From NCBI GenBank assembly GCA_050331735.1, contig JBHJGN010000039.1:39624-103623 (forward strand): a stretch of DNA of 64,000 bases. Direction: 5' to 3'. Within the stretch, counting starts at the first letter, position 1; every line of letters begins with the position of its first letter. The notes under the pieces are model-generated. The model ran no database searches. It was not told the DNA's origin and saw nothing but the letters and a program-made list of their open reading frames with translations. The DNA comes from Cyanophyceae cyanobacterium (lineage in GTDB: Bacteria > Cyanobacteriota > Cyanobacteriia > Cyanobacteriales > JBHJGN01). Shown here one piece after another: positions 7,858 to 52,127 of the stretch. A program made the translations under genes and the position numbers.

Positions 7858-7892
7858 ATCCTCACAAATTCCTCATATTCTTAGCTTAATCT
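7858..7892 (+). promoter_or_regulatory. L-box-like direct repeat + -10 (site A), towards the di-heme pair
   Basis: ATCCTCA-CAAA-TTCCTCA, 11 nt, TAATCT. Confidence 0.75.
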
Positions 7893-27123: not shown

Positions 27124-28944
27124 ATGAGAATTTTGTTAGTAGATGACGACAAACTGCTCATGAACGCTCTGGCTGAACGGCTGATGAAAGAGCACTATGT
27201 CGTAGATGTGGTCACGACAGGAGAAGAGGCGTGGAATTATCTGGCTGTTTTGACCTACGATCTGGCCGTGCTAGACGTGATGCTGCCGGATGAGAATGGC
27301 GTGAACCTGTGCCAGCGACTGCGGGCCCAGGGCTATAACCTACCGATTCTGTTGTTAACGGCTCGCCGCACTCGCGAAGAAATTGTTCAAGGACTCAACG
27401 CCGGGGCTGATGATTATGTGGTGAAGCCCTTCGATTTTAACGAACTGGCCGCCCGCATCCGCGCCCTGCTGCGGCGAGAACGCCAGGCGCTCCCGCCGAT
27501 CCTCGCCTGGGGCGAGCTGAGGCTTGACACCAATACCTGTGAGGCTACCTACGCGCAGCAGCCTCTGTCGTTAACGCCGAAGGAGTACGAACTGCTGGAA
27601 CTCTTTTTACGCCATCCTACGCGCGTTTACAATCCCGATACCATCATCGAAAGTCTTTGGTCGCTGGAAAATCCCCCGGGGGAGGAGGCGGTCAGAACCC
27701 ATATCAAAGGAGTGCGCCACAAGCTCAAACAGGTGGGCGCGCCCCGGGATCTGATTAAAACAGTGTACGGCATTGGCTATCGGTTAAAGCCAGAAGACCA
27801 ATCGGCCTCAACCGCTGCCTCAGAAGCGCGGGCTTCAGCCAGCCAAAATGCTAAAACCTTAGCCGCGGTTGCTCGCACCTGGGAACAGTTTAAGGGAGCC
27901 ATGACAGAGAGACTGAATATTTTAGAGCAGGCAGCCCAATCCCTGGCCCACGACCGTTTGAGCCGTAACCTTCACGAGCAAGCGATCGCCGCCGCCCATA
28001 AACTCGCTGGTTCCCTGGGCAGCTTTGGCTTTCCCGAAGGGTCCACGCTAGCTAGAGAGCTCGAGGAGATGCTGCGTACTGATGTCTCTTCCCGGCAAGC
28101 ATCGCAAGTGGGCGAAACGGTTAAGGCCCTAGAGCGCGTTCTGGAGCGCCGACCTTTCGAGATCCCCCCTCATCACCCCCTGCTGCTGATTGTGAACGAC
28201 GATGCGGCGAGCGCTCACCAGTGGGCCGCGCAAGCCGCCGAAGCCGGTCTGCGCAGCGCCATTGCCTCCTCAACCCAGGCTCAGGATTTAATCCGGCGGG
28301 AGCGTCCGGCGGCGGTTTTGCTTCAGCTTGCTAGCGCCCCGGTTCCCCCAGCCCCAGGGTCTTCTGCTTCAGAAGAACTAGCGCTCCTCGCCCACCTGCA
28401 CCATCAGCTACCCAGATTACCCATTGTTGTGGTGACCGAGGAAGAAGATGCTGCTAAACGCTTAGAAATCGTTCGTCAAGGAGCGCGCATCTTGTTGACT
28501 CCCCCCGTCACCCCAGTCGGAGCGGTCCAAGCCGTCACTAGTGTGTTAAAACGCTCTGGGGCTGGTGCAAAGGTAATGATTGTTGATGACGACGAGCAGA
28601 TTTTGGCGGGACTCCAGGCGGCTTTGGCTCCCTGGGGATTTCAACTCACGACCCTCGCCAATCCCCAGCGGTTTTGGGAGGTGCTGGCAGAGACGGCTCC
28701 AGATTTACTGGTGCTAGACGTAGAAATGCCGGAGGTAAATGGTATCGAGCTGTGCCAGGTTCTGAGAAGCGAGCCGCGCTGGAGCCGCTTGCCGGTGCTA
28801 TTTTTGACCGTTCACCAGGATGCTGCCACTCAATATCAGGCGTTTGCCATCGGGGCTGATGATTACGTCACCAAACCAGTCATGGGCGTGGAGTTAGCCA
28901 ACCGCATCCTCAATCGCCTGGAGCGATCGCGCCTGCTTGCCTAG
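27124..28944 (+). CDS. RcaC-like response regulator (REC-OmpR wHTH-Hpt-pseudoREC-REC)
   Basis: VLDVMLP; LTPKEYELL...VRTHIKGVRHKL...IKTVYGIGYRL; Hpt AAHKLAGSLG; C-terminal VLDVEMP. Confidence 0.92.
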   Translation: MRILLVDDDKLLMNALAERLMKEHYVVDVVTTGEEAWNYLAVLTYDLAVLDVMLPDENGVNLCQRLRAQGYNLPILLLTARRTREEIVQGLNAGADDYVVKPFDFNELAARIRALLRRERQALPPILAWGELRLDTNTCEATYAQQPLSLTPKEYELLELFLRHPTRVYNPDTIIESLWSLENPPGEEAVRTHIKGVRHKLKQVGAPRDLIKTVYGIGYRLKPEDQSASTAASEARASASQNAKTLAAVARTWEQFKGAMTERLNILEQAAQSLAHDRLSRNLHEQAIAAAHKLAGSLGSFGFPEGSTLARELEEMLRTDVSSRQASQVGETVKALERVLERRPFEIPPHHPLLLIVNDDAASAHQWAAQAAEAGLRSAIASSTQAQDLIRRERPAAVLLQLASAPVPPAPGSSASEELALLAHLHHQLPRLPIVVVTEEEDAAKRLEIVRQGARILLTPPVTPVGAVQAVTSVLKRSGAGAKVMIVDDDEQILAGLQAALAPWGFQLTTLANPQRFWEVLAETAPDLLVLDVEMPEVNGIELCQVLRSEPRWSRLPVLFLTVHQDAATQYQAFAIGADDYVTKPVMGVELANRILNRLERSRLLA

Positions 28945-28959
28945 TCCCGGCTTTGCCCC

Positions 28960-29352
28960 CTAGGCTAAGTGCTGCGGACAGTAACCCAGTCCCCGAATAA
29001 ATTGTTGCCGAAACGCTTCAATATCCGCTCGCCCCGGCAAACCGTGGGAAATCACCACAACCCGATAGCGCCTCATGACCAGAGTCGGGCAGTCTCCCAC
29101 TTCTAAATCTCTTAGCACCAGCCGCACCTGTTCAGAGGGCTGAGCCGGAAAGCCCAGTTCATTCAAAAACGCCCAAAAGTCTCCGTCTTGCTCGAGCGGC
29201 AAGGGAAAGCGCAGCTTGATTCTCACCAGCCAGCGGTCAACGTCGTGAATAACGCTCATAAAGGCAACCGGAAGGTCCGGGCGGCTTTCTAAATACTCGA
29301 TCAGCCTCAGGGTGAGGCTGGCATTGGCGAAGCAATGTAGGTAGTCCATCAT
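28960..29352 (-). CDS. Conserved cyanobacterial hypothetical protein
   Basis: ANASLTLR...GDF.AFLNELG...VMRRY.V..SHG...IEAFRQQF.RGLGYCP, a pattern I recall from cyanobacteria; GAGGAG RBS. Confidence 0.85.
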   Translation of the reverse strand: MMDYLHCFANASLTLRLIEYLESRPDLPVAFMSVIHDVDRWLVRIKLRFPLPLEQDGDFWAFLNELGFPAQPSEQVRLVLRDLEVGDCPTLVMRRYRVVVISHGLPGRADIEAFRQQFIRGLGYCPQHLA

Positions 29353-29664
29353 TTAAGCTCCTCGAACTTGAAGCAATTCCTCCTCAGTAGACGTTGAAAG
29401 GTCCAGCCGATGGCGGTAACCGCGTTCGTCTCCTGGCTATCTGCGTCTCACTCGATTAACAGTAGCCTTCTTAGAAAATCGAGAAGAAGCGGTGTCGGTC
29501 GGTAGAGGCGATCGCCAGCAGCCCACAGATGTATGGTCAAGGATAGTCATGGGAATAGCTCTTCCAAAACACTAGCAGATAACAACTGAAACAACCGCTG
29601 CTCGGCGAGAGTCAATCCAGCTCGCCTACACTCCGACTAGCTACTTTAAGCGAGCTCAATTAAA

Positions 29665-29699
29665 ACAATACTCAAGGAATTTGAGGATCTTGTGAGGAC
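29665..29699 (-). promoter_or_regulatory. L-box-like direct repeat + -10 (site B), towards 29352
   Basis: Minus strand GTCCTCA-CAAG-ATCCTCA, 11 nt, TATTGT. Confidence 0.75.
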
Positions 29700-29920
29700 G
29701 ACTGATTGAGTCGGTTGATTGGGAAAATAGTCTATGGTTGAGGAGGGAACACCCCCGGTTCGGTTGCTCCCCTTGTCACTCGATTTAATAAAATTGGGAT
29801 AGCTGCGTCAGCTCGCGTTGTCAAGATTTGCGCTCAAAACCTCGCCGACGGCTAACCCTCAGTTCTGAGCCTCAGACGATCGACCTTTAAAGCCAGCAAA
29901 CCTTTCTTGCAGGAGTCCCC

Positions 29921-32900
29921 ATGCAGTCGAGACGCTTTCTTTCCTCGCTCGCTCTAGACCAGATCATTGATCCTAATCCCCTGATTGTGACTCCTGATAC
30001 AGCGGTGCTAGCGGTCCTTGACCAGATGAGTCAGGTACGCGGAAGCGCCTGTCAGCTTACTTCTGAGCGTATTCAACCAGAGCGTACCTCCCCAACCCAG
30101 GCTAGCTGTGCTCTGGTGATGGAGCAAGGGCAGCTCGTCGGATTATTTACGGAGCGGGATTTAGTCAGGCTAGCGGCTACGTCCAGTCCCCTCGATACGG
30201 CTACAATGGCCGAGGTGATGACTCGTTCTGTCATTACTTTATCGGCGGCAGCAGCCCAAAATGTGGCGGCGCTGCTGGCGGCTTTTCGCGCCCATCGGAT
30301 TCGCCACTTACCGATTGTGGAGCGAGGACAGGTGCTTGGTATCGTTACCCCGGCCAGTATTCGGGCGGCCCTTCAGCCGCTCAACTTTCTCAGACTGAAG
30401 CAGGTCGGCGATGTCATGGTGACCGATGTGGTGCAGGCTGCCGGGACAGCATCGGTTTTACACCTGGCTCAGTTGATGAGTGAAGAGCGCGTGAGCTGTG
30501 TGGTGATTACGGAAGAACGGTTCGACGCTAGCTCAGTTAATGAGGGGGAGAGAAGCCGTTGGCGTCGAACGGGGACAGGGGAAAGGGAAATCTGTCCCTC
30601 CGGGACGGGGACAGGGGAAAGGGGAACAGGGAGAGAAAGTCAACAGCGCTCGCTCCCTGTGGGCATTATTACGGAGCGGGATATCGTTCAGTTTCAAACT
30701 TTGGGACTGAATTTAGCTCAGGTCCGGGCGCAGGCGGTGATGAGTACGCCTCTGTTTCCGGTGCAGCCCCGAGATTCCCTGTGGAGCGCTCATCAACAAA
30801 TGCTGTCGCGCCACGTGCGGCGTTTGGTGGTGACGGACGAAGGGAAATTGGTCGGTTTGATTACCCAATCTAGCCTGCTCCAGGTTCTTGACCCGGTGGA
30901 GCTGTTGGGGGATCTCGATCAGCTCCAGCAGGTGTTAGACAACCGCAACCGCGAACTTCAGGATACGAATCAGCAGTTGCGCCAGGAAATGGCCCAGCGG
31001 AAAAGTTTAGAGGCGGACTTGAGAGAGACGAACGCTGCTCTAGAGGAGCAAGTTGGGGTCACTGCCGCTCAGCTTGTTAAAACCAATGCGTCTTTAAGAG
31101 ATTCAGAAGCTCGCTACCGCCAGCTATTTGAGAGTAATCCCCATCCCATGTGGGTCTATGACCGAGACACCCTCGCGTTTCTGACCGTGAATGCGGCGGC
31201 GATCGCTCACTACGGCTACTCCCGCGCTGAGTTTTTGCACATGACCCTCCGGGATATTCGTCCTCCCGAGGCGATTCCGGCCCTGGAAGCCAATATTGCC
31301 CGAGTCACGGACGGCATTGATGAAGCGGGCATTTGGCAACATCTCAAAAAAGACGGCACAGCGATCGCGGTCGAAATTACCTCCCATACCCTAACCTGGC
31401 AAGGCAGACGGGCGGAGATGGTGTTAGCCCACGACGTGACGGCCAGAGTTCAGGCAGAAGCGGCCCTCCGGCAGAAAACCCAAGCGCTAGAGCACTACAG
31501 CAGCAGTCTCAAAAAACTGCACCGCATCAGCACCACCACCTACCCAGATTTTGACACTTTATTTGCCGATTACCTCCATACCGGGAGCGAAATTCTGGGC
31601 CTGTCCACCGGAATCATTTCCGCCGTCAGCCAGCAGACCTACACCATTCGCGCCGTTCGTTCCCCCTTAAATTTTTTGGTCCCCGGAATGGAAATAGCCT
31701 TAGCAGACACCTACTGTGCTGCCGCTGTCGCCGAGCACCGCACCTTAACCTATCCCCACGTTAGCCAGTTGCCAGCCCTGCGGACGCATCCGGCTCATCA
31801 AAATTGGCGGCTAGAGTCCTACATCGGCACTCCCATCTACGTAAAAGGTCAAATTTACGGCACCCTCTGTTTCGCGGATACGGCAGCGAGACCCCCATTG
31901 GCGTCTTATGAAACAGAAATCCTTGAGTTGATGGCTCAAAGCCTGGGACGACTGATCGCGGCAGCTCATTTAGAAACCCAGCGACAGCAGGCAGAGCAAG
32001 CAACCCAAGCCGCTCTCCAGTCGGCTCAAAATAGCGAAAATCGGCTGCGAACAATTATTGATACCGAACCCGAGTGCGTCAAGCTGGTTGATGCGGAGGG
32101 TCGCTTGCTCGACATCAATCCGGCAGGACTCGCCACGATCGAGGCAGAGAGTTTAGCGCAAGTGGCAGAGCGCTCGGTTTACTCTCTGATTGTGCCCAAA
32201 TATCGGCGGGCCTTTCAAGATCTTAATCAGAAGGTTTGCCAGGGTCACAGAGGAACCCTCGAGTTTGAAATTGTCGGCTATCTTGGCACTCGCCGCTGGC
32301 TCGAAACCCATGCCTCTCCTCTCTGGGACGACGCGAATCAGCGATTTATTCAGCTAGCCGTTACCCGCGATATCACCGAGCGCAAGCGCTCGGAAGCGGC
32401 TTTGCGAGACAGCGAAGCCCGCTACCGCCGTTTATCGAAAAAACTACAGTCGATTACCGCTAACGCTCCTATCTATATCTACGAACTGGATCGTCAGGGA
32501 CAGATTGTGTTTGCCAATCGCACCTACGCAGGCGTGACCCCAGCACAGGTGCTCGGCACCTTGCTGACCGACTGGTTTCCCCAGGAGCAGCGCCCGTCTA
32601 TGGCCTCAGCCGTCGAGCAGGCGTTTCGCTCTCGGCAGGTTCAGGAGCTTGAGTATGCCATTCCCAATCCCCAGGGGGAAATCCGCTCCTATTTAGCGCA
32701 GATCGCGCCAATTACCACCAATGCCCATGTAGAGAGCGCGGTGCTCATCGCTACCGATACGACTGAACGCCGGAGGGCCGAGCAGGAGCTAGAACGCTTC
32801 TTCGCCCTTTCCGTTGACCTGCTCTGCATTGCAGATTTTAACGGCTATTTTCAGCGTCTCAATCCCGCTTTTGAGCAGACCTTGGGATGGACGGACCAGG

Positions 32901-35257
32901 AGCTGCGCTCGCTGCCGTTTTTAGAATTTGTTCATCCAGGCGACTGGGCCGCCACCGTCGCTGCCGTCGAGCAGCTTGCTAGCGGCGAGCAGGTAGTGGC
33001 GTTTGAAAATCGCTATTGCACCGCTGACGGGGACTATCGCTGGCTGCTGTGGTCCGCCGCTCCCTCCCAATCAGAAAAACTCATCTATGCGGTGGCGCGG
33101 GATATCACCGACCGCAAACAGATAGAGCTTGCCCTCCAGCAAGAGCGAGACTTCTCCACTGCCGTATTAGACACCGTGGGGGCTCTCGTGGTCGTGCTCG
33201 ATCGTCAGGGGCAGATCGTGCGCTTTAACCGCACCTGCGAGGCCGTTACTGGTTACTCGTTTGAGGAGGTTCGAGGACACCCGGTGTGGGAAATGTTGCT
33301 TCCAGAAGAACAGCCAAGCGTCCAGGCCGTATTTTCCCGGTTGCTTACGGGACAGTTTCAGAATCAGTACGAGAACATTTGGGTCAGGAAGACGGGAGAG
33401 CGTCGCCGGATTTCCTGGTCCAACACCGCTTTGACCGACGAACACGGGGCGGTAGATTACGTGATTGCCACTGGAATCGATATTACCGAACAACGACAGG
33501 CTCAAGAGAAGCTAGAGCGCTCCTACCGACAGGCTCAGCTCCTAGCCCAGGTGACCCGGGAAATTCGTAACTCTTTGGAGTTGACAGACATTCTCCAGAC
33601 GACGGTGAGCGAAGTTCAAAATTTGCTGGCGTGCGATCGCGTGCTCATCTACCAAATTCTTCCCGACGGAACGGGCAAAACCATTAGCGAAGTAGTTTTA
33701 CCCGAATACCCGGCGATTCTGGGAACTGCCTTTTCAGAAGAAGTGTTCCCTGAAGACTGCCGCGAGGAATATCGTCAGGGCCGCGTCAGAGCGATCGCCG
33801 ATGTGGAGGCTCCCAATATTAATCTCCCTGACTGTTTAGTTGAATTTATGGAGCAGTGGAGCGTTAAAGCAAAGCTGGTGGTTCCCATCTTGCAGCTCAA
33901 AAATCCGCCGGAGCTCCCTCCGGCAGACGATTCGAGCAAGCTCAATTCTGCTCAATCTCCGGAGGCCTCCGCTCAACACGAACTGTGGGGACTGTTGATT
34001 GCCCATCAGTGTAGTCGTTCCCGCCAGTGGGAAACCCTAGAAATTGATCTGCTTCAGCAGCTCGGAGATCAAATTGGCGTAGCGCTCTCCCAAGCTCAGA
34101 TTCTCGATCGCCTGGAGGAACTGGTTGCTCAGCGTACCTCCCAACTGCGGGCAGCCAATCTTGAGCTCCAGGCAGAAGTCAGCGTTCGCGCCAGCGCTGA
34201 ACAGGCCCTGCGTCGCTCCGAAACCCAGCTCCGCCTGATTACCGATGCGCTTCCGGTACTGATTTCCTACGTAGATGCCCAGCAGCGCTATCGCTTCGTG
34301 AATCAAACCTATGAAGAGTGGTTTGGACGATCTCGCTTTCAGATCGAAGGACGACAGGTCTGCGAACTCGTTGGCGAAGAGGCGTACCAGCAGATCCAAA
34401 CCTACATCAACACGGCCCTCTCCGGTCAGCCTGTGCTTTTTGAAACCGAAGTGCCCTTCAAAAAGAGTACTCTCTGGGTAAGCGGAACCTACGTGCCCGA
34501 TTTTGGCGAGGGCGGCGAGGTCAAGGGGTTTTTTGCTTTGATTAGCGACATTAGCAACCTTAAAGCGATGCAGCAGATGAAAAGCGAATTTATCTCCGTT
34601 GTCAGCCACGAACTGCGTACGCCGCTGACATCTATTCACGGCTCCTTAAAGCTGCTGTCTACAGGGCGGCTGGGCAGTCTGACCGCACCGGGTCAAGAAA
34701 TGCTCGCGATCGCTCTTAAAAATACCGAACGTCTGACGCGCCTAGTCAGCGATATTCTCGACCTCGAGCGCATTGAATCTGGCAAGGTCAATCTCAGTCC
34801 CCTCGTGTGTGACGCAGCGGACCTGCTGAGGCAGGCCGTGGAAGCGATGGTGGGCCTAGCTCGTGCTGAGGATATTACTCTGACCATCGCTCCTGTTTCC
34901 GCCCCAGTATGGGCCGATCCCGATGGCGTTGTTCAGATCCTCACCAATCTGATTAGTAATGCCATTAAGTTTTCGCCTTCTGGCAGTACCGTATGGCTAA
35001 CAGCCACAGAGCAAGAGCAAGAGGTTCTGTTTCAGGTCAAAGACCAGGGACGGGGCATTCCCGCCGACAAGCTAGACAGCATCTTTGAACGGTTTCAGCA
35101 GGTTGATGCCTCCGACTCTCGCTCCAAAGGAGGAACGGGATTGGGGCTAGCTATTTGTCAAGAAATCGTGCGGCGGCATGGCGGACGGATCTGGGCAGAA
35201 AGTATCCTCGGGGAGGGCAGCACGTTCTCGTTTACGCTCCCCGCTGCTCAGCGGTAA
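29921..35257 (+). CDS. Sensor histidine kinase: CBS x4, multiple PAS, GAF, RcaE-type green/red cyanobacteriochrome GAF, PAS, HisKA, HATPase
   Basis: CBS motifs (LVGLFTERD, IRHLPIV); bilin GAF EEVFP...Y...DCLVEF...KAKLVVP...LWGLLIAH; VSHELRTPL; NAIKFS; GTGLGL. Confidence 0.93.
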   Translation: MQSRRFLSSLALDQIIDPNPLIVTPDTAVLAVLDQMSQVRGSACQLTSERIQPERTSPTQASCALVMEQGQLVGLFTERDLVRLAATSSPLDTATMAEVMTRSVITLSAAAAQNVAALLAAFRAHRIRHLPIVERGQVLGIVTPASIRAALQPLNFLRLKQVGDVMVTDVVQAAGTASVLHLAQLMSEERVSCVVITEERFDASSVNEGERSRWRRTGTGEREICPSGTGTGERGTGRESQQRSLPVGIITERDIVQFQTLGLNLAQVRAQAVMSTPLFPVQPRDSLWSAHQQMLSRHVRRLVVTDEGKLVGLITQSSLLQVLDPVELLGDLDQLQQVLDNRNRELQDTNQQLRQEMAQRKSLEADLRETNAALEEQVGVTAAQLVKTNASLRDSEARYRQLFESNPHPMWVYDRDTLAFLTVNAAAIAHYGYSRAEFLHMTLRDIRPPEAIPALEANIARVTDGIDEAGIWQHLKKDGTAIAVEITSHTLTWQGRRAEMVLAHDVTARVQAEAALRQKTQALEHYSSSLKKLHRISTTTYPDFDTLFADYLHTGSEILGLSTGIISAVSQQTYTIRAVRSPLNFLVPGMEIALADTYCAAAVAEHRTLTYPHVSQLPALRTHPAHQNWRLESYIGTPIYVKGQIYGTLCFADTAARPPLASYETEILELMAQSLGRLIAAAHLETQRQQAEQATQAALQSAQNSENRLRTIIDTEPECVKLVDAEGRLLDINPAGLATIEAESLAQVAERSVYSLIVPKYRRAFQDLNQKVCQGHRGTLEFEIVGYLGTRRWLETHASPLWDDANQRFIQLAVTRDITERKRSEAALRDSEARYRRLSKKLQSITANAPIYIYELDRQGQIVFANRTYAGVTPAQVLGTLLTDWFPQEQRPSMASAVEQAFRSRQVQELEYAIPNPQGEIRSYLAQIAPITTNAHVESAVLIATDTTERRRAEQELERFFALSVDLLCIADFNGYFQRLNPAFEQTLGWTDQELRSLPFLEFVHPGDWAATVAAVEQLASGEQVVAFENRYCTADGDYRWLLWSAAPSQSEKLIYAVARDITDRKQIELALQQERDFSTAVLDTVGALVVVLDRQGQIVRFNRTCEAVTGYSFEEVRGHPVWEMLLPEEQPSVQAVFSRLLTGQFQNQYENIWVRKTGERRRISWSNTALTDEHGAVDYVIATGIDITEQRQAQEKLERSYRQAQLLAQVTREIRNSLELTDILQTTVSEVQNLLACDRVLIYQILPDGTGKTISEVVLPEYPAILGTAFSEEVFPEDCREEYRQGRVRAIADVEAPNINLPDCLVEFMEQWSVKAKLVVPILQLKNPPELPPADDSSKLNSAQSPEASAQHELWGLLIAHQCSRSRQWETLEIDLLQQLGDQIGVALSQAQILDRLEELVAQRTSQLRAANLELQAEVSVRASAEQALRRSETQLRLITDALPVLISYVDAQQRYRFVNQTYEEWFGRSRFQIEGRQVCELVGEEAYQQIQTYINTALSGQPVLFETEVPFKKSTLWVSGTYVPDFGEGGEVKGFFALISDISNLKAMQQMKSEFISVVSHELRTPLTSIHGSLKLLSTGRLGSLTAPGQEMLAIALKNTERLTRLVSDILDLERIESGKVNLSPLVCDAADLLRQAVEAMVGLARAEDITLTIAPVSAPVWADPDGVVQILTNLISNAIKFSPSGSTVWLTATEQEQEVLFQVKDQGRGIPADKLDSIFERFQQVDASDSRSKGGTGLGLAICQEIVRRHGGRIWAESILGEGSTFSFTLPAAQR
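30567..30635 (+). repeat. In-frame GGGGAAA/hairpin mini-repeat inside a CBS domain
   Basis: GGGGAAAGGGAAATCTGTCCCTCCGGGACGGGGA is identical to the reverse complement of ~58703-58736. Confidence 0.85.
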
Positions 35258-35292
35258 GGAAATTAATCCCTATGAAAATATCCCATTGGTAT

Positions 35293-35327
35293 ATCCTCAC
35301 AAGTTCCTCAAAATTCATGGCTAAGAT
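35293..35327 (+). promoter_or_regulatory. L-box-like direct repeat + -10 (site C), towards pseudo-RcaF
   Basis: ATCCTCA-CAAG-TTCCTCA, 11 nt, TAAGAT. Confidence 0.78.
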
Positions 35328-35636
35328 AGTAAAAATTTGGTAAAGGATTAACGGGGGAAAGTGAGGAGTTTGGGGTGGGGAAGTCGAGTACTGGGTCAAC
35401 AGTTAGAGTGTTTTTTCTGCCGACCGACATCCGCTAGCAAAGGAAGCGAGTGAGATGCCGAGTTGTTTCGCATCAGCGGGCATCAGACTGCATCAGTAAC
35501 AACGAACCATGAATTGCTCACCCGAGCGGGTACAATTAACGATTAACGCCTCGCTTTTAGCTCTCTCCTCGCAGCATGTCACTCATTAAGCAGATTTAAC
35601 AGGTGCAACAGAGTTAAGCATCAAAGAGAGGAAGGT

Positions 35637-36023
35637 ATGTGTGCAGAAGACGAGCGGCGCATTTTGATTATCAGTAGCTCGACTGATATTCAGCGGATTT
35701 TACGGTTGAGTTTAGAAATGTCGGTCGATTGGTCTATTATTACTGTTGGTTCCGTAAGCGAAGGACTCGCTCTAGCGGCAGCGGCCCCGCCTCACGTGAT
35801 TTTACTAGATGCTAATTTATCAGATATAGATGCCCTCACTGCGCTGCAAACCTTAAGAAACGCTCCCGCTACTCAACCCAGTCGAGTGATTGTGCTTGCC
35901 TCAAGAGTCCGCTTGTCTCAACAGCGTCAGTTCAGCCAAATGGGAGCGGTGGCCGTAATTTCCGACCCGTTTAACTCTGCTAACTTGGCTCAGCAAATTG
36001 CGATCGCTCTCGGCTGGCTGTAA
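35637..36023 (+). CDS. Single-domain receiver, degenerate RcaF-like
   Basis: Colinear with 43858..44253 but ISSS replaces IDDD and SDPF replaces AKPF; phospho-Asp (LLD) kept. Confidence 0.85.
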   Translation: MCAEDERRILIISSSTDIQRILRLSLEMSVDWSIITVGSVSEGLALAAAAPPHVILLDANLSDIDALTALQTLRNAPATQPSRVIVLASRVRLSQQRQFSQMGAVAVISDPFNSANLAQQIAIALGWL

Positions 36024-36220
36024 ATGCGATCGCCCGTTGTCGGCTGTAGCGGTTTTCCTTCTCGCTTTTGCTCGCAAAGAGAGACCAGAACTAGCGCATT
36101 TCTTTCAAAAATAAACTCGCTATAGTCAGCCAGATCGTCGATTCCCAGTAGGGTGAGTAAAATTTCAGAGGCTAGCCAAACGACCCCCCTAGCCAAGGAA
36201 AATTTCCAAGTTTTGTTCAT
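35990..36220 (-). CDS. Small conserved cyanobacterial membrane protein
   Basis: WLASEILLTLLGIDDLADYSEFIFE motif; GAGG before ATG. Confidence 0.7.
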   Translation of the reverse strand: MNKTWKFSLARGVVWLASEILLTLLGIDDLADYSEFIFERNALVLVSLCEQKREGKPLQPTTGDRIYSQPRAIAIC

Positions 36221-36259
36221 TGAGCCTCACTTTTATGTTGCAATTTGTCTTCAATACCC

Positions 36260-36727
36260 CTAATAACTTGTTAGTAAAACGGCCTCCATCAACAGACCAT
36301 CTTCTGGTGCTATTGCCTCGAATAATGCTGCTTGAGCTTCGGGTTTAATGAGCATTGTATTGGTGGGAGTGATACTGAAATCTTTTCCCGGAACAAACCC
36401 CTGTTTGATCAGCGTGTACGATGCCAGAAAAACGAGGTCTTTCAGGAGCTGATGGTAGGACTGCAATTGAGAGAGCGCTTTCAAAGCCCAGCGGCAAATA
36501 TCTGGGTCAGTTTCTGAAAGCTGAATGGCCGCCACCGTCATTACATTGGTAGTGTAAGCAGAACCCATAAGCGCAATCAGGGTTTCCTCACACCGCTTAA
36601 CAATTTCTTGATTCTGTAGTTTTAAAGCCCCAATGATTAGAGTGACGCAGAGATCGAACTTTTCTGGGTTATTTATTGCGTACATCTTGCTACTTAGTAT
36701 TCGGACTATATCCAGAGCAGAAGACAA
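36260..36727 (-). CDS. Hypothetical protein (start uncertain)
   Basis: 155-aa ORF co-oriented with neighbours; L...GF.PGKDFS motif. Confidence 0.6.
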   Translation of the reverse strand: MSSALDIVRILSSKMYAINNPEKFDLCVTLIIGALKLQNQEIVKRCEETLIALMGSAYTTNVMTVAAIQLSETDPDICRWALKALSQLQSYHQLLKDLVFLASYTLIKQGFVPGKDFSITPTNTMLIKPEAQAALFEAIAPEDGLLMEAVLLTSY

Positions 36728-36845
36728 GAGCTAAGGGTTAACAATTAAATGTTTAGCTGTTTACTAAACAAGGTTTCAGGGTGCTACTTCTGTATGGATC
36801 TTTTGAGCTGCTGGGATTTTTACATAAAGCGCGTTCGTTGTTTTT

Positions 36846-37058
36846 CTACTTTAGATTTGGCAGCAAAACCCAGCCTTCACGCCTCAGCTTTTGATACGTC
36901 GCATATCCTTGAGAAGCACCAGGAACTTGATGGTCGGGAACTGCTAATTCTGGAAAAGCGGTATAGGGCTGCCACGATTGCTGGGGATGTGTTCTGAGAT
37001 GTAAAATTTTGGTTTTGTCAGTTTTACTAATTGGGAGCCAACTCATTTGATGATGCAT
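36846..37058 (-). CDS. Conserved cyanobacterial hypothetical protein (~70 aa)
   Basis: ILHLR..P...W.PYT..P..AVPD.....S.G.ATYQKL...GW.L pattern. Confidence 0.75.
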   Translation of the reverse strand: MHHQMSWLPISKTDKTKILHLRTHPQQSWQPYTAFPELAVPDHQVPGASQGYATYQKLRREGWVLLPNLK

Positions 37059-37110
37059 TACTATTGCTGGATAGACGATTTTGGATTGTTAGATTTGCTT
37101 GTTTGGCGAA

Positions 37111-37200
37111 CTAAATAGCTAAAGAATAAGCAAATAAGATCAGGCCAATGCCGGTAATTAAACTACCGAGAATCGGCAAGATTTGTAGGTTGAGAATCAT
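37111..37200 (-). CDS. Putative 29-aa single-TM peptide
   Basis: MILNLQILPILGSLITGIGLILFAYSLAI*; ATGA overlap with the upstream ORF. Confidence 0.45.
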   Translation of the reverse strand: MILNLQILPILGSLITGIGLILFAYSLAI

Positions 37201-37322
37201 GATGCTTTAGAGTTACCAATGGTAATAACGGTTAACAGCAGAAACAACATTAGAATTAGCAGTAGCAGCACTGCTCCCTCGGCGTAAATAAAAACTAAAC
37301 TAGACCAAAGATTAAGTGTCAT
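37197..37322 (-). CDS. Putative 41-aa single-TM peptide
   Basis: MTLNLWSSLVFIYAEGAVLLLLILMLFLLLTVITIGNSKAS*; its TGA overlaps the next ATG. Confidence 0.45.
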   Translation of the reverse strand: MTLNLWSSLVFIYAEGAVLLLLILMLFLLLTVITIGNSKAS

Positions 37323-37799
37323 GAGCTTTTAAACAGAAAATAATCGGAAGTGTGATGCTGCTTGCTGTCACACAACGCGAGCACCGCTGAACTAATTCGC
37401 TTCTATTCTTGAAATTACGGGGAGAAAATGAAGAACTGCTGAAGATTGTCCTGTTGTTTGTTTTCTGTGATTGTCAGCCGTCGTTCGAGAGTCGGCAGTT
37501 TGAGCGTTTTTTCTGCCTTCCTCCTGATTCTGGCTCGGTTTTCCTTTACAGAAGTTCAAAATGATTAAAATCATTTAATAAACAGAGACAATCGTAAAGA
37601 GTATTACTAGAGTAGGAACATCTTGACGAAGTAACGGCAACCTGAAACGGCAAATTCAGGACGAGGGCAGGGACAATTGGTTCAGCCAACCGTTTTTTGA
37701 GGCAGAAACGGGCACTTGAGTTTTAGATGACTCTGATTTACGACGGAGGCATCTGAAACCGTTGGTCAAGCAGCACAGAGCAAGAAGCATGAGGCTGCC

Positions 37800-40103
37800 A
37801 TGAAAATTTTGTTAGTAGAAGATGATGAGCTGGTCGTTCAAGAACTGGGTTCAGCTCTCCAAAACCAGCACTATGCTGTTGACGTAGCGAAAGACGGACA
37901 GGAGGGGTGGGAACTGGGGTCAGCCGGAACCTACGATTTAGTGTTGCTGGATGTGATGCTTCCAAAAATGAACGGCATCGAGCTGTGTCAGCAGTTGCGA
38001 TCGCAGGGAGTCCAAACTCCGATTCTGTTGATGACGGCTCAGGACACCAACACCGACGAGATTATTGGGTTGGATGCCGGGGCGGATGACTACGTGACCA
38101 AGCCTTTGAATTTTCGAGTGTTGCTGGCCCGCATCCGGGCTTTACTGCGTCGCGGACAGACCGAATTGGCTCCGTTACTGACCTGGGGCGATCTCTGCCT
38201 CGATCCGAGTACCTGTGATGTTACCTACCGCAATCAGCTACTCCACCTCACTCCCAAGGAGTATGGCTTGCTAGAGCTGTTTCTGCGCAATCCCCAGCGG
38301 GTTTATAGCCGCAGCGTCATTCTCGACCATCTGTGGACCCTGGAGGCATCGCCGGGAGAGGAAACCGTTACCGCTCACATCAAGGGGCTGCGGCAAAAAT
38401 TAAAGGCCGCAGGCATCGCAGATCCCATCGAAACCGTCTACGGCATTGGCTACCGCCTTAAGCCCACCCCGCAGGCGGCAGCTTCTGCGCAGCATCAAGC
38501 CCTGCCGCTCAGTTCCCAAGAGGCGCAGCAGCAGGTCCAAGCAAAAGTTTCGACAGTTTGGGAACGAGTGCAGGAGAAGCTGAGTCAACGGGTGACCGCC
38601 ATCGAAGAGGCAACGACTGTTCTCCTCAAATCTCGGCTGAGCCGCCAGCAGCGTCTTCAGGCTCAGCAGGCAGCCCATAAACTCGCGGGGTCTCTGGGGA
38701 TGTTTGACCTCGACGAAGGCTCGCGGCTCGCGCGAGAAATTGAGCAGTTATTGCAACAGCGGTCCCTCAGCAACCCCCAAAGGCGGCAGCTCACTCACTT
38801 AATTGGAGCTCTACGACAAGAGCTACAGCGGACGACGAGCACGCTGAGCGCTGAATCTCCGCCCTCTCCAGCACTGCTGATCGTTAGTGAAGACCTGAGC
38901 TTTGCCCAGGAATTAGCAGCCGTCGCTCAAGGGAAGGGGTTAGACTCTCAGATCCTGTCTGATCTCGTTGAAACGAGAGCCTGGGTGGCCGTTCATCCTC
39001 CTGAAGTCGTGTTCCTCGACCTTGGCGGTGAGAGCGAATTCAACGCTGCTCAACTCGCCTTACTCGAAGAGCTGAAAGCATCAACGCCTCCCGTTCCGGT
39101 GCTCGTTTCTGGTCCCAACGGCATCCTCAACCGCGTCCAGGTTGCTCGCCTGGGCGGACGACGGTTTTTACCGAAGCCCGTCTCATCGGCTCAGGTGCTA
39201 GAAACGATCGCCCAAGTGCTCCAGCAAACGCGCTACCATACAGCCACCATTGCCGTCGTAGACGACGATCCGCAGATTCTGCTGGCCCTGCGGCACCTGC
39301 TCCAGCCGTGGGGCATCAAGCTGATCGCTCTTGATGCGCTGCAATTTTGGGAGCGGTTAGGCAGCATACCGCTCGATCTGCTGATTCTGGACGTAGAAAT
39401 GCCCCAGATCAGCGGACTGGAACTGTGCCAGCTCGTGCGGAACGACCCGCGCTGGACCGATCTGCCCGTGCTGTTTCTGACGGCTCATACCGATGCCCAA
39501 ACGATGCAGCAAGTGTTTGCGGCGGGAGCCGACGACTTTGTGACGAAACCGATCGTCGGTCCTGAATTAGTCACTCGGATTCTCAATCGGCTCGAGCGCT
39601 CGTCCTTAGTTCGCCGCCAAACTCAGCTCGATCCGTTAACGGGTCTGGCTAATTATCGCTGCTCCCATCAGGAACTCACGCGGCTGCTGGACATGGCCCA
39701 TCGTGATCGCCAACCGCTATGCTTTAGCGTCCTGCACCTCGAGCGCCTCCAGCAGATCAACGAGGAGCACGGCCACGGGCTTGCCGACCAAGCCCTCAGA
39801 CAGTTCGGTTACTTGCTGCGGCAGACCTTTCAAAGCGAAGACCTGGTGGCTCGCTGGGGGGGAGCAGAGTTTGTCATCGGTATGTACGCGATGACAGAAC
39901 GCGATGGTGTCCAGCGTCTCTTAGACGTGAAGAACAAGCTCTCTCAAGTGTCTCTCCCGCTCACCTTTAAGGCGGGAGTGGTGCAGTATCCGCAGGACGG
40001 CCCTGACTTGCAGTCCCTGTATCACCAGGCCTTCACCCGGCTGCAGCACCAAGCTCCAGCCAGCAACCCCATTCGTACTCGGCCCCCGTCAAATTCCCCA
40101 TGA
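37800..40103 (+). CDS. RcaC-like response regulator (REC-wHTH-Hpt-REC-REC) with degenerate GGDEF domain
   Basis: LLDVMLP; LTPKEYGLL...IETVYGIGYRL; AAHKLAGSLG; ILDVEMP; DPLTGLAN...ARWGGAEF. Confidence 0.92.
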   Translation: MKILLVEDDELVVQELGSALQNQHYAVDVAKDGQEGWELGSAGTYDLVLLDVMLPKMNGIELCQQLRSQGVQTPILLMTAQDTNTDEIIGLDAGADDYVTKPLNFRVLLARIRALLRRGQTELAPLLTWGDLCLDPSTCDVTYRNQLLHLTPKEYGLLELFLRNPQRVYSRSVILDHLWTLEASPGEETVTAHIKGLRQKLKAAGIADPIETVYGIGYRLKPTPQAAASAQHQALPLSSQEAQQQVQAKVSTVWERVQEKLSQRVTAIEEATTVLLKSRLSRQQRLQAQQAAHKLAGSLGMFDLDEGSRLAREIEQLLQQRSLSNPQRRQLTHLIGALRQELQRTTSTLSAESPPSPALLIVSEDLSFAQELAAVAQGKGLDSQILSDLVETRAWVAVHPPEVVFLDLGGESEFNAAQLALLEELKASTPPVPVLVSGPNGILNRVQVARLGGRRFLPKPVSSAQVLETIAQVLQQTRYHTATIAVVDDDPQILLALRHLLQPWGIKLIALDALQFWERLGSIPLDLLILDVEMPQISGLELCQLVRNDPRWTDLPVLFLTAHTDAQTMQQVFAAGADDFVTKPIVGPELVTRILNRLERSSLVRRQTQLDPLTGLANYRCSHQELTRLLDMAHRDRQPLCFSVLHLERLQQINEEHGHGLADQALRQFGYLLRQTFQSEDLVARWGGAEFVIGMYAMTERDGVQRLLDVKNKLSQVSLPLTFKAGVVQYPQDGPDLQSLYHQAFTRLQHQAPASNPIRTRPPSNSP

Positions 40104-43100
40104 TGCCTGACCCTAGCAACGAACCAGCCAGACTCAAAGCCCTCCACCGCTATCGCGTTTTAGATACCCTGCCGGAAACCGCCTTTGACGATCTCACCCG
40201 GCTGGCCGCCTCCATCTGCCAGACGCCGATCGCCTTAGTGAGCTTAGTAGACAAAGAGCGACAGTGGTTTAAATCGAAAGTGGGCCTGGAGGCAGCGGAA
40301 ACGCCCCGCGAAGTCGCTTTTTGTGCTCAGGCGATCACGAACCCCAGAGAAGCCTGTGTTGTTCCAGATGCCCGGGAGGAGCAGCGTTTTGCCACCAACC
40401 CGCTTGTTCTCGACGGACCGAAAATTCGCTTTTATGCCGGAGTTCCCCTGGTCACTCCGGAAGGCTATGCCTTGGGAACTCTCTGCGTCATCGATACCAA
40501 ACCGCGCACCATTGCCGCTGAGCAGCTCAGCGCCCTCAAGGCTCTAGCGCGCCAGGTGATGACTCAACTGGAACTGCGCCGCCAGACCTTGGAAGCCGAA
40601 GCTGCTCGCGCTCAAGTCACGAACATTTTAGAGAGCATCACGGATGGTTTTTTTGCCCTCGATACCCACTGGCGGTTTACCTACATTAACCGTCAGGCAG
40701 AGTCACTGCTCCAGAGAAGTCGGGAAGAACTCGTGGGCCAAAATATTTGGGAGATCTTTCCAGAAGCCGTCGAAACCAACTTTTACCGGGAGTACCAGCG
40801 GGCGATCGCTGAGGGGGTGAGCGTTGACTTTGCGGAATTTTATCCGCCCCTCAACACCTGGTATGAAGTTCACGCCTATCCTTCTTCAGAGGGACTGTCG
40901 GTCTATTTTCAGGACGTCACTGAGCGCAAACAGATGGAGTTAGCGATGCGGCAGCAGTCGGCAGCGCTGGCAAACTTCAGTACTCATCTTAAGCATCTCC
41001 ATCGCATTAATATCACCACCTACGCCAGTTTTGAGGCTCTCTTCGCCGACAGTTTAGCAACCGGATGTACGATTCTGGGGCTGTCAACGGGAATTATTAG
41101 CCAAATTACCGACCAGACCTATACAATCCGGGCGGTGAGGTCGCCGCTAGCTCTGTCAGCGGGAGCAGAATTTGAGCTACAGAACACCTACTGCGCTGCC
41201 GTAGTCAGAGAACGCCGCACGATCGCCTATACGCAGGTGGGCACCAGTGACCTGCAAAGGCATCCGGTATACCACACTCTCGGCTTAGAAGCCTACATCG
41301 GGGCCCCAATTTGGGTCAACGGGGAAATCTACGGAACGCTGAATTTCTCGTCAACAGAGCCAAAATCCAGCGGTTTTGAGCCCCACGAACGGGAATTGAT
41401 TGAACTCATGGCCCAAAGCATTGGTCGGTTTATTGCGGCAGACCAAGCAGACACCGAGCGTCAGCAGATGATCGCCGAACTCCGACGAACCAATCAGCGC
41501 GTCCAGCTATTTGCCGATGTAGCGCTCAAAATCCGCCGCTCCCTGAAGCTTGAGGAGATATTGGAGACGACGGTGACCGAGGTACAGCAGTTTTTGAGGT
41601 GCGATCGCGTGATTATTTTTCAGCTCCAAAGAAACGGCAGTGGCAGAGTGGTCAGAGAAGCGTTGGTGCCCGGATGTCCGGCCATTCTCGGTCAGGATAT
41701 CGACGACCCCTGCTTTCGCAGCGAATACATGGACAAGTATCGCCAAGGACGCACCAGCGCGATCACCGATCTCGAGCAGGCCGACCTGGAAGAGTGCCAC
41801 AAAGAACTGCTTCAGCAGTTTGCCACCCGCGCCAATTTAGTCGTGCCGATTCTGCACCATGAAGAGCTGTGGGGCTTACTGATCGCTCATCAGTGCTACC
41901 GCCCTCGGCAGTGGAGAGATTCCGAAATTGAGTTTCTCCAGCTCCTCGCCAACCAGCTTGGCATTGCTCTCGGGCAAAGTCAGCTCGTGGTCGCTCTCCA
42001 GGAGAGCGAACAGCGATTTCGCCTGCTAGCCGATAGTGCCCCGGTCCTGCTGTGGATGACGGGAACCGAGCACCAAGCAACGTTTTTCAATCAAACCTGG
42101 CTCAACTTTAGCGGACAACCTCTGGCTCAAGCGCTGGCCAGCGGTTGGGCAGCAGGCATTCATCCCGACGACCGCGAGCGCTGCCAGGAGACGTATTCAG
42201 CCGCTGTTGAGCGCCACGAGAGCTTTACCCTAGAGTATCGCCGCCAGTCCAACCGAGAGTATCGCTGGGTGCTAGATACAGGAGTGCCGCGACTGACCCC
42301 AGACGGCAGCTTTGCCGGCTACATCGGTTCCTGTATCGATATTAGCGATCGCCGCGAAGTGGAACAGCTCAAAGATGAGTTTGTGTCGGTTGTCAGTCAC
42401 GAACTACGGACCCCCCTCACGTCGATTGGTGGCGCCTTAGATTTGCTCGCTAGCGGAGTGCTGCACACCCAACCCCAGCGGGCACAAAGGATGCTGCAAA
42501 TTGCTGTCAACAATACAGATCGGCTGGTGCGCTTGATCAACGACATTCTCGATATTGAACGAATCGAGTCCGGCAAAGTGATGATGAGTAAACAGGGTGG
42601 CAACGTCTCGGACCTGCTCGATAGCGCCGTCGCCACCGTGAGCGAGCTAGCCGAGAATGCGGGAGTGACCCTCCAGGTGTCTACGCTCTCGGCGCGACTA
42701 TGGGTCGATCCAGACCGCATCATTCAGGTACTGACCAACTTACTCAGTAACGCGATCAAATTTTCCGACCCGGGCTCAACCGTATGGCTAACGGCCTCCC
42801 GTGTCTGTGGCTCGACGGCTAACCGCTCGCCAGCAGAGAGCGAACCCATGATTTTGTTTCAAGTCTGCGACCAAGGACGAGGCATTCCCGCCGATCAGCT
42901 CGAAACCATTTTTGGTCGCTTTCAGCAGGTGGATGCGTCTGATTCGCGCCGGCGGGGCGGCACCGGCTTAGGACTCGCGATTTGTCGCAGTATTGTGCAG
43001 CACCACGACGGTCAGATCTGGGCAGAAAGTACCTTCGGAGAGGGCAGCACCTTTTTCTTTACTCTGCCGGTTTTACAGGAAGAAGCGCCGGCAAGCGTCA

Positions 43101-43861
43101 ATTCAGGCCCGCTAGTGCTCGTTTGCGATGACGACCCTTCCTTACGAACTGTGGTGCAAACCCTGCTCGAACAGCAAAATTACCAAGTCGTTGCCGTGGC
43201 CTCGGGCCGAGAAGCGATCGCCCAGGCTACCGCGCTGACCCCCGATGTGATTTTGCTAAATTTGCTCATGCCGGAAATGAACGGCTGGGAAACCCTGTCT
43301 GTTCTCAAAGCCCAGTCAGAAACCGCCTCAATTCCTGTGGTAATTTTTAGTGGGCTGATGCCCGATGCCAGAGAGCAGCATCCAGAAATCAGCGATTGGA
43401 TCGTGAAGCCAGCCGAGCAACAGCGCCTCTGTCAGGCGTTAGAGGCGCTGCTCCAGCCTCCGCAAAATCTCAAGGTGCTGATCGTCGAAGACGACCCCGA
43501 TTTAGCTCAGGTGCTGGTGGCCCTGTTCGACCGTCACGGCATTCAGACTCTCCGGGCGCGAACGGGACGGGAAGCACTTCAGCTCAGTCAACGCTTTATG
43601 CCCAACTTGCTGGTGCTTGACCTAAGCTTGCCAGACTACGATGGCTTTGCGGTGGTCGATTGGCTCCGGCAGCACAATCGCCTGTGGCGACTTCCGCTTG
43701 TGGTTTACACCGCGAAAGATTTAGAGGCCTCTGAACGAGAGCGCCTACAGCTCGGACACACGCTCTTTTTCACCAAAGGACGCATCACCCCTGAAGAATT
43801 TGAACAGCGAGTGATTCGCTTACTGGGCCGACTGATGAGCAAGCGAGGAGAAGACCGATGA
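40100..43861 (+). CDS. Hybrid histidine kinase GAF-PAS-GAF-DXCF cyanobacteriochrome GAF-PAS-HisKA-HATPase-REC-REC
   Basis: DDPCF and ECH cysteines; RANLVVP, LWGLLIAH; VSHELRTPL; first REC has Asp->Asn (LLNLLMP); ATGA overlap. Confidence 0.93.
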   Translation: MMPDPSNEPARLKALHRYRVLDTLPETAFDDLTRLAASICQTPIALVSLVDKERQWFKSKVGLEAAETPREVAFCAQAITNPREACVVPDAREEQRFATNPLVLDGPKIRFYAGVPLVTPEGYALGTLCVIDTKPRTIAAEQLSALKALARQVMTQLELRRQTLEAEAARAQVTNILESITDGFFALDTHWRFTYINRQAESLLQRSREELVGQNIWEIFPEAVETNFYREYQRAIAEGVSVDFAEFYPPLNTWYEVHAYPSSEGLSVYFQDVTERKQMELAMRQQSAALANFSTHLKHLHRINITTYASFEALFADSLATGCTILGLSTGIISQITDQTYTIRAVRSPLALSAGAEFELQNTYCAAVVRERRTIAYTQVGTSDLQRHPVYHTLGLEAYIGAPIWVNGEIYGTLNFSSTEPKSSGFEPHERELIELMAQSIGRFIAADQADTERQQMIAELRRTNQRVQLFADVALKIRRSLKLEEILETTVTEVQQFLRCDRVIIFQLQRNGSGRVVREALVPGCPAILGQDIDDPCFRSEYMDKYRQGRTSAITDLEQADLEECHKELLQQFATRANLVVPILHHEELWGLLIAHQCYRPRQWRDSEIEFLQLLANQLGIALGQSQLVVALQESEQRFRLLADSAPVLLWMTGTEHQATFFNQTWLNFSGQPLAQALASGWAAGIHPDDRERCQETYSAAVERHESFTLEYRRQSNREYRWVLDTGVPRLTPDGSFAGYIGSCIDISDRREVEQLKDEFVSVVSHELRTPLTSIGGALDLLASGVLHTQPQRAQRMLQIAVNNTDRLVRLINDILDIERIESGKVMMSKQGGNVSDLLDSAVATVSELAENAGVTLQVSTLSARLWVDPDRIIQVLTNLLSNAIKFSDPGSTVWLTASRVCGSTANRSPAESEPMILFQVCDQGRGIPADQLETIFGRFQQVDASDSRRRGGTGLGLAICRSIVQHHDGQIWAESTFGEGSTFFFTLPVLQEEAPASVNSGPLVLVCDDDPSLRTVVQTLLEQQNYQVVAVASGREAIAQATALTPDVILLNLLMPEMNGWETLSVLKAQSETASIPVVIFSGLMPDAREQHPEISDWIVKPAEQQRLCQALEALLQPPQNLKVLIVEDDPDLAQVLVALFDRHGIQTLRARTGREALQLSQRFMPNLLVLDLSLPDYDGFAVVDWLRQHNRLWRLPLVVYTAKDLEASERERLQLGHTLFFTKGRITPEEFEQRVIRLLGRLMSKRGEDR

Positions 43862-44253
43862 CGAAGCGCATCTTAGTCATTGATGATGATGAAGACATTC
43901 GCGAGGTGGCTCAGGTCGCTCTAGAAGTCGTTGGTGGGTGGGAGGTACTGGTCACGAGTTCCGGTGCGGCAGGGCTGCGTTTAGCCGCCGCTCAGCAGCC
44001 GGATGCGATTCTTCTAGACGTAATGATGCCCGATCTTGACGGCATTGCCACCTTTCAACGGCTCCAGAGCAATCCAGCAACGCAGCAGATTCCCGTCATT
44101 TTACTGACAGCTAAAGTGCAGCCTGCCGATCAGCGTAAATTTGCTCAGCTAGACGTGGTAGCGACCATTGCTAAACCGTTCAAGACCATGCTACTCGCTC
44201 ACCAGGTCGCGAAGATACTGGGCTGGAGCGACGCTGAATCCTTGTCACGGTGA
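43858..44253 (+). CDS. Single-domain response regulator, RcaF-like
   Basis: IDDD, LLDVMMP, LLTAK, AKPF; ATGA overlap with the kinase. Confidence 0.93.
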   Translation: MTKRILVIDDDEDIREVAQVALEVVGGWEVLVTSSGAAGLRLAAAQQPDAILLDVMMPDLDGIATFQRLQSNPATQQIPVILLTAKVQPADQRKFAQLDVVATIAKPFKTMLLAHQVAKILGWSDAESLSR

Positions 44254-48126: not shown

Positions 48127-48161
48127 AGGATAGGAAAAAAGTTTGAGGAACTTGTGAGGAA
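48127..48161 (-). promoter_or_regulatory. L-box-like direct repeat + -10 (site D), towards lon operon
   Basis: Minus strand TTCCTCA-CAAG-TTCCTCA, 11 nt, TATCCT. Confidence 0.78.
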
Positions 48162-48439: not shown

Positions 48440-48474
48440 TTACTCACAACTTCCTCATATTCTTTTTCTAGGCT
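48440..48474 (+). promoter_or_regulatory. L-box-like direct repeat + -10 (site E), towards heme peroxidase
   Basis: TTACTCA-CAAC-TTCCTCA, 11 nt, TAGGCT. Confidence 0.7.
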
Positions 48475-52092: not shown

Positions 52093-52127
52093 AAAGTAAA
52101 GAAAGATTTTGAGGAACTTGTGAGGAA
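52093..52127 (-). promoter_or_regulatory. L-box-like direct repeat + -10 (site F), towards hsp20
   Basis: Minus strand TTCCTCA-CAAG-TTCCTCA, 11 nt, TACTTT. Confidence 0.8.

Follow-up and report, generated by a model that had tools for sequence, protein, structure and literature searches.

A regulator paralogous to RcaC and an RcaE-type kinase as predicted controllers of a cyanobacterial hydrogenase and fermentation regulon

Gene layout at the locus

The DNA analysed here is a stretch of 64,000 nucleotides (the window) from contig JBHJGN010000039.1 of a Cyanophyceae cyanobacterium (GCA_050331735.1; genome 99.98% complete), in which two sets of genes resembling the RcaE-RcaF-RcaC phosphorelay lie side by side (Table 1), with regulator RR1, kinase K1 and receiver F1 forming cluster 1 (relay 1), and regulator RR2, hybrid kinase K2 and receiver F2 forming a triad (relay 2). 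A sequence-only reading of this DNA had given these six open reading frames (ORFs) their positions and domains; an ORF check and Pfam agree with it, and the genes are intact. RR1 (606 aa) has the RcaC architecture, REC(D51)-wHTH-Hpt(H292)-degenerate REC-REC(D532), with the Asp and His sites expected of RcaC, and RR1 and RR2 are the two RcaC-like genes among the 19 OmpR-type wHTH genes of the genome. The domains of K1 follow the order CBS, PAS, GAF, PAS, cyanobacteriochrome (CBCR)-GAF, PAS, HisKA, HATPase. Cluster 1 is not one operon, because a gene on the opposite strand lies between RR1 and K1, and F1, rightly called a pseudo-RcaF, has a box promoter of its own. The order regulator, 130-aa gene, kinase, receiver is kept in genome G034 and in metagenome locus L157.

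Table 1. Relay genes, sequence features and boxes in the window.
Feature	Position	Strand	Basis or detail
Box upstream of two di-heme cytochrome c peroxidase-like genes	7859..7875	+	Motif scan, gene order
RR1, RcaC-paralogous regulator, predicted box binder	27124..28944	+	Pfam, motifs, trees, co-occurrence
RR1 recognition-helix codons (EEAVRTHIK)	27682..27708	+	Compared with canonical RcaC EATVRSHLR in relatives
Conserved cyanobacterial hypothetical protein, 130 aa, box-driven	28960..29352	-	Between regulator and kinase, syntenic in relatives
Box upstream of the 130-aa gene	29682..29698	-	Motif scan, matrix
K1 kinase	29921..35257	+	CBS/PAS/GAF input region and RcaE-type GAF-PAS-HisKA(H1563)-HATPase
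K1 green/red-type CBCR GAF with Cys1305	33581..34087	+	Alignment to 8k9o/7ckv
Box upstream of F1	35294..35310	+	Motif scan, matrix
F1 pseudo-receiver	35637..36023	+	Asp58 kept; acidic pair and Lys lost
155-aa ORF without family, assigned to neither relay	36260..36727	-	Pfam, atlas searches
RR2, RcaC-like regulator, degenerate GGAEF domain	37800..40103	+	Pfam, motifs
K2 hybrid kinase	40100..43861	+	GAF-PAS-GAF-DXCF CBCR GAF (C538, C566)-PAS-HK(H767)-REC(Asn1054)-REC(D1174)
F2, intact RcaF-like receiver (D54)	43858..44253	+	Groups with receivers of orthologous triads
Box upstream of Lon-pentapeptide-Usp	48144..48160	-	Motif scan, Pfam
Box upstream of heme peroxidase gene	48441..48457	+	Motif scan, Pfam
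Box upstream of Hsp20	52110..52126	-	Motif scan, Pfam

The box, its predicted regulon and its reader

The box is a direct repeat, TCCTCACAAGTTCCTCA, followed by 11 nt and then TAnnnT. An L-box-like motif with a regulon had been proposed from the sequence alone, and the motif holds up well: TCCTCACAAGTTCCTCA occurs at six sites in the window against 0.65 expected, and none of 100 shuffles reached six. A matrix seeded on these six sites returned 34 sites in the genome, on 7 of its 99 contigs and with 33 outside long ORFs, all scoring at least 25.7 bits with the next site at 17.1, and column-shuffled matrices gave no match in nine of ten runs and two in the other. The T and A at box positions 29-30 are present in 32/34 and 34/34 sites, respectively, and the 11-bp direct repeat lies over the predicted -35 region at a fixed distance from the -10 element, which is the layout of promoters activated by OmpR/PhoB-type regulators; the L boxes of cpcB2 in relatives have the same geometry. 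The predicted transcription starts fall some 40 nt beyond the opening base of each box. A generic promoter and terminator scan performed at about chance level.

With transcription units drawn from gene order, and with hoxF, hoxH, hoxW, hoxY and hypA named by position and similarity without a named family match, the boxes head the hydrogenase units Usp-hoxE-hoxF, hoxU-hoxY, CBS-CBS-hoxH and hoxW-hypA-hypB, and also hypF-hypC-adh, nifJ, DHOD-like-pfkA-hypD-hypE, ldh-ppsA and Hsp20 with an alternate F1F0 ATPase operon. Further boxes precede a metallo-beta-lactamase-fold gene, ftsH, infA, more Usp and Hsp20 genes, Lon, proteases and peroxidases, and none of the genomic box sites lies near cpc, apc or pcyA. 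The predicted box regulon is thus a hydrogenase and fermentation module, a point that the sequence-only reading had missed.

Regulators found near such boxes have in common the recognition helix E[ED]AVRT[HQ]IK (RR1 type), and the co-occurrence of helix and box, a genome being counted as box-positive if it holds at least two, was followed across 401 genomes. Boxes are present in 34 of the 36 genomes with the helix and in 12 of the 365 without; when the five genomes that had served to define the helix are removed, 29/31 helix genomes still have them. Kin genomes are not independent in these counts, and islands and plasmids carry the regulator along with the boxes. Because more than half of the sample consists of distant or small genomes, family f7 (46 genomes, 28 with the RR1-type helix and 18 without) makes the fairer test, and here boxes occur in 28/28 with the helix versus 4/18 without it. 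Among hoxU-positive f7 genomes the counts are 20/20 and 2/11, and where the helix is present and hoxU missing the box is kept in 8/8. When 20-kb stretches at 20 of the 36 helix loci were fetched, 15 encoded a fused regulator-kinase, 12 had a box within 20 kb and 7 adjoined hox genes, head-to-head with box-Usp-hox. The closest RR1 relative is P0002 (71%). On a Stanieria plasmid the regulator has a variant helix, and a variant base appears in eight of nine nearby boxes versus 1/34 here (one case). RR2 has a different helix, EETVTAHIK, seen in five of 80 selected genomes and in none of the 46 of f7. The box therefore tracks the recognition helix of RR1, not that of RR2. We are confident in predicting that RR1 binds the box, and RR1 is most likely the activator of the hydrogenase and fermentation genes behind it.

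Several observations weigh against this assignment. There are the 12 helix-negative genomes with boxes counted above, G269 has the helix and no box was found in it, and at five syntenic metagenome loci the boxes are weak or missing. Under low oxygen, the box-adjacent genes of A. marina respond both ways (hoxE +2.0 and D0238 +1.3 log2; D0152 -1.7, D0181 -2.2 and D0248 -1.4 log2), which speaks against a simple low-oxygen trigger. The helix-negative genomes would suit a scheme in which the box is read by another factor (LexA, a sigma factor or another OmpR regulator, for example of Hrr1 type), with RR1 inherited alongside as a passenger of the fermentation island. Such a scheme draws also on Synechocystis, where SigE, cyAbrB and LexA govern hox and nifJ according to passages of PMC11368403, and on the H box of Hrr1, given as AGGAATTTACM in a passage of PMC13079394, which partly resembles the reverse strand of our box. 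We nevertheless judge it very improbable, for three reasons: helix-bearing genomes that lack hoxU still have the box, and most genomes with hoxU and no helix lack the box; in a tree computed after removal of the helix columns, separate clades retain the helix; and on the Stanieria plasmid a change in the helix goes along with a change in the box.

Binding by RR1, our preferred assignment, would set this regulon apart from what is known. Induction of the bidirectional hydrogenase and of pyruvate:ferredoxin oxidoreductase has so far been explained mainly by global factors studied in Synechocystis. LexA, cyAbrB1/2, SigE and Rre34 act on the same output genes, and, in the passages of PMC11368403 that treat them, none is an RcaC-type multidomain protein and none uses this box; the C-rich TAnnnT -10 element found here does resemble the SigE consensus quoted there. 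The analysis points to a specific regulator, with a kinase and a predicted binding site, that occurs in several families and also on a plasmid of a strain in culture: the hydrogenase/Na+-ATPase module of Acaryochloris pREB4 (PMC8949462, in part) has the same gene set and box-like sites, weak to moderate in score, with a regulator carrying the same helix (A. marina AM1_RS34120) inside the module. Passages of that paper propose control by a sigma factor and a PAS kinase, with no mention of an RR1-type regulator or of the box, and no description of either was found in the literature searched, subscription papers being mostly outside its coverage.

Other features stand near boxed genes. A fermentation island (G000:C9:14700-52400) holds split hox genes, the alternate (Na+-type) ATPase operon, three Usp genes, a P-type ATPase, ldh, ppsA and an intact RcaF-like receiver, and its gene set mirrors that of A. 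marina pREB4. The tandem di-heme cytochrome c peroxidase-like genes at 8053-11055 of the window, being under a box, would place peroxide/oxygen handling within the fermentation regulon. A CBS-CP12 gene (window 52350-53024), of a type that relatives have within their hox operons, and a nickel-insertion (LarC-type) gene (6451-7698) flank box-bearing genes and have no box of their own. Single box-like sites (TTCACAA-TTTTTCA) beside other RcaC-like genes (G004:C1:2026853, G046:C2:40819) suggest that different RcaC-like paralogues read related versions of the box.

Light sensing by K1 and the output of relay 1

The CBCR GAF domain of K1, with residues mapped by hand onto RcaE, has RcaE as its best PDB match (E 1e-60), and its earlier description as RcaE-type is borne out. 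It keeps the chromophore Cys1305 and equivalents of RcaE E217, L249, K261, F214, F219, P220, Y227, R233, F252 and H285, among which E217/L249/K261 is the protochromic triad in passages of bioRxiv 10.1101/2020.12.08.414581 that assign roles to other residues too; on sequence, it has both the Cys and the triad of a green/red CBCR GAF. The domain is sister to the RcaE GAFs (SH-aLRT 98) on a short branch, with 54-63% identity to them versus 40-42% to four full-length syntenic orthologues, and the Cys-less orthologous copies are long-branched. A second GAF tree, three orthologue rows of which were incomplete or misaligned, was not used for this placement; matches to the domain among long proteins were dominated by multi-GAF proteins, and its single-sequence fold had a pLDDT of 42. 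The PAS-kinase part of K1 groups weakly (84/79) with G034/L157-type syntenic kinases, next to RcaE.

Other data count against a role for light. The RcaE Y223 equivalent is a Cys, a change in the pocket wall; the chromophore Cys is missing in 8/8 orthologous GAFs (G034, G043, G308 and five related metagenome loci); and the fused regulator-kinases at 15/20 helix loci have no CBCR-like GAF. Light is therefore not the core signal of the system, and in relatives the RR1-type system appears mostly not photosensory. Since all examined orthologous GAFs are Cys-less and the fused forms have no CBCR GAF, photosensing, as predicted for K1, sets this lineage apart from the others seen; it was either inherited from an ancestor shared with RcaE or recovered via a domain swap. 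K1 itself, unlike the relatives examined, looks able to sense green and red light. Four of the RcaE sequences compared have the same GAF-PAS spacing as K1, and RcaE itself is active under red light, with a green-absorbing dark state according to a passage of the bioRxiv paper cited above; on these grounds K1 would be on in red light or in the dark, a polarity that suits fermentation, and we lean slightly towards a photoactive K1 with this polarity. The same losses feed a different reading, in which RR1 runs the fermentation regulon and the green/red GAF of K1 is vestigial or minor, the working signal being metabolic (adenylate via CBS, redox via PAS): the orthologues have lost the Cys, the fused ones have PAS inputs instead, and K1 itself has replaced Tyr223. 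This is unlikely in our estimate, for the K1 GAF stays close to the RcaE GAFs on a short branch, unlike the Cys-less copies, with an intact triad in a genome that has pcyA.

Whatever K1 senses, its output is almost certainly not the phycobilisome. There are ten phycobiliprotein-domain matches in the genome, namely cpcB, cpcA, apcA/B/D/F-type genes, ApcE and one extra apcA/B-like pair (apcD, F and E named from their sequences by eye), with one cpcBA, one rod linker, one rod-core linker of CpcG type and one bilin reductase, pcyA. The window had been said to hold no phycobiliprotein genes and no canonical L boxes; Pfam finds none of the former, and the two L-box matches lie below the 6.1 expected by chance. 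The genome check proposed alongside found no cpe, pec or pebAB in the near-complete genome, no cpc2, and no exact match to the pattern that we take to be the L box, which occurs before cpcB2 in four of the five canonical rca loci of relatives; cpcBA and pcyA lie outside the window. Because the genome has a single cpcBA and lacks both phycoerythrin genes and an L box, neither relay can run type 3 chromatic acclimation (CA3). CA3 and CA1 outputs are thereby ruled out, and a CcaS/CcaR system (CA1/CA2/CA7) was rejected, the kinase partner being RcaC-type and not a simple OmpR protein, next to one rod-core and one rod linker and no cpe or pec. The nearness of the K1 GAF and kinase core to RcaE could still suggest a displaced or relic CA3 system regulating phycobilisome genes; given this gene content and the absence of boxes near cpc, apc and pcyA, and given that G034 and G043 hold canonical rcaEFC and the RR1-type system as separate loci, that idea is already largely refuted and has next to no probability left. 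The extra divergent apcA/apcB-like pair (G000:C97:11020-12100) falls below family cut-offs, lies away from apcEAB, has no box upstream and resembles low-light allophycocyanin variants. An rcaE-rcaF-rcaC-type cluster elsewhere (L082, G033:C3:52000-56100) has no cpc genes or L box within 20 kb.

An intact rcaF is not found beside K1. The sequence-only reading had made F1 a relay step, which it probably is not; a better candidate would be the intact RcaF-like receiver at C9:42003-42380 inside the hox island, which resembles the receiver after the kinase in relatives, although the receiver tree gives no resolution for this assignment. F1 is likely a feedback element or decoy, feedback being suggested by its own box; a similar degenerate, box-preceded receiver is found in G043. 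In the mechanism that we propose, K1 would combine energy and redox inputs (CBS, PAS, GAF) with a green/red bilin switch, active in the dark or under red light and turned down by green light, by analogy with RcaE, and would autophosphorylate and pass phosphate via the C9 receiver to the Hpt and N-terminal receiver of RR1; RR1 would then bind the tandem box over the -35 region and activate some 34 promoters, with box-induced F1 feeding back. Phosphate flow from K1 to RR1 is probable; the DHp stretch of K1, TSIHGSL, matches that of kinases fused to the RR1-type regulator and differs from that of K2. Taken whole, two independent relays side by side, with relay 1 an RcaEFC paralogue for the hydrogenase and fermentation module under green/red input, is the arrangement to which we give somewhat better than even chances. 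Upstream, a Ser/Thr kinase-AAA-GAF-HisKA-REC gene coupled to a REC-PAS-HK-REC hybrid (window 18778-27022) lies on the same strand as RR1 and ends 101 bp before it; the pair may be co-transcribed with RR1 and be another phosphate input.

Relay 2, known systems and origins

The triad RR2-K2-F2 is translationally coupled through ATGA overlaps, as had been described for 37800-44253. RR2 (767 aa) is REC-wHTH-Hpt-REC-REC with D51, H293 and D531; its earlier description as RcaC-like with GGDEF stands in the first part and fails in the second, the active diguanylate cyclase motif GG[DE]EF having degenerated. K2 has the DPCF (at 536) and CH (at 566) of a two-Cys DXCF CBCR, as first proposed, and its first REC, with Asn in place of Asp, is not phosphorylatable. 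G010, G029 and G056 also have this DXCF-GAF triad, apart from relay 1, and no shared motif was seen by eye in five regions upstream of RR2-type triads, with no formal motif search made. Relay 2 is, as far as these sequences indicate, a separate conserved sensor triad that probably has targets other than the box regulon; the analysis found none for it. The sequence-only reading had instead let both relays converge on that regulon, which could happen through RR2 binding the box or through K2/F2 cross-phosphorylating RR1. The adjacency of the relays, a non-photosensory GAF common to K1 and K2 (54%), the 56% identity of F2 and the C9 receiver, and the genetic interaction of Rca and Dpx in Fremyella described in a passage of PMC13492139 all point that way. 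Convergence is improbable all the same: the RR2 helix differs from that of RR1 and is absent from f7, 28 members of which carry the RR1 helix and boxes, the DHp stretches differ, the triad is conserved apart from relay 1, and the common GAF is found at 50-52% in two other kinases of the genome. These are large ORFs (G000:C71:27032-32039 and C22:131560-136809), one of them next to the gene of an OmpR regulator that is near the RcaC-like family.

K2 is like DpxA-DpxB-DpxC in its DXCF-type CBCR GAF and adjoining single-domain receiver; the Dpx operon, a teal/yellow system of DXCF sensor, single receiver and hybrid kinase in passages of PMC13492139, was set aside on operon layout, the triad here joining an RcaC-like regulator to a hybrid sensor and a receiver. 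The gene order of the triad, regulator-kinase-receiver, is that of RfpB-RfpA-RfpC as outlined in part of PMC9415938. K2 differs from RfpA in being a DXCF CBCR, and the phycobiliprotein set here has no far-red cluster, photosystem paralogues not having been searched. RfpA is a phytochrome.

Relay 1 shares with RcaE-RcaF-RcaC of Fremyella diplosiphon the regulator architecture, phospho-sites and GAF-PAS-kinase core with its protochromic triad, and its box shares with the RcaC L box a tandem repeat of 11-bp period next to the -10 element, with 5/7 bases per half-site alike. It differs in recognition helix (EEAVRTHIKGVR versus EATVRSHLRRLR in RcaC), in box, in its hox, fermentation and stress targets, in the large N-terminal CBS/PAS/GAF extension of K1, in genes that do not form one operon, in a host without phycoerythrin, cpc2 or L box, and in coexisting with true rcaEFC elsewhere. 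One survey, in part of PMC9415938, found 27/27 RcaE carriers able to make phycoerythrobilin; this genome, unlike those, cannot, and an RcaE-type GAF alone does not predict chromatic acclimation.

RR1 falls in a clade separate from RcaC, sister to it in one tree (96/92). When the helix columns are left out, the tree does not resolve the backbone and a single RcaC row separates from the others, yet three distinct groups carry the RR1-type helix, and one of them neighbours RcaC (82/98). On this account RcaC may have descended from a fermentation regulator. We hold tentatively, and with more doubt than confidence, that expression of the hydrogen and fermentation genes is here under the direct control of a green/red bilin sensor, and that the fermentation relay and the Rca relay of CA3 share a light-sensing ancestor, most lineages having lost the chromophore or fused the kinase and one copy having changed its helix and taken over phycobiliprotein genes. 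If the K1 GAF works, light colour would be linked to hydrogen metabolism, with a clue to the origin of CA3.

Among the minor features, atlas searches gave no function for the 130-aa and 155-aa proteins; the former, without a Pfam family, is widespread in cyanobacteria and has a second genomic copy on a 110,682-bp contig (P0244). Intergenic G-rich heptamer and mini-hairpin repeats lie at 58576-58790 and 47880-47905 of the window.

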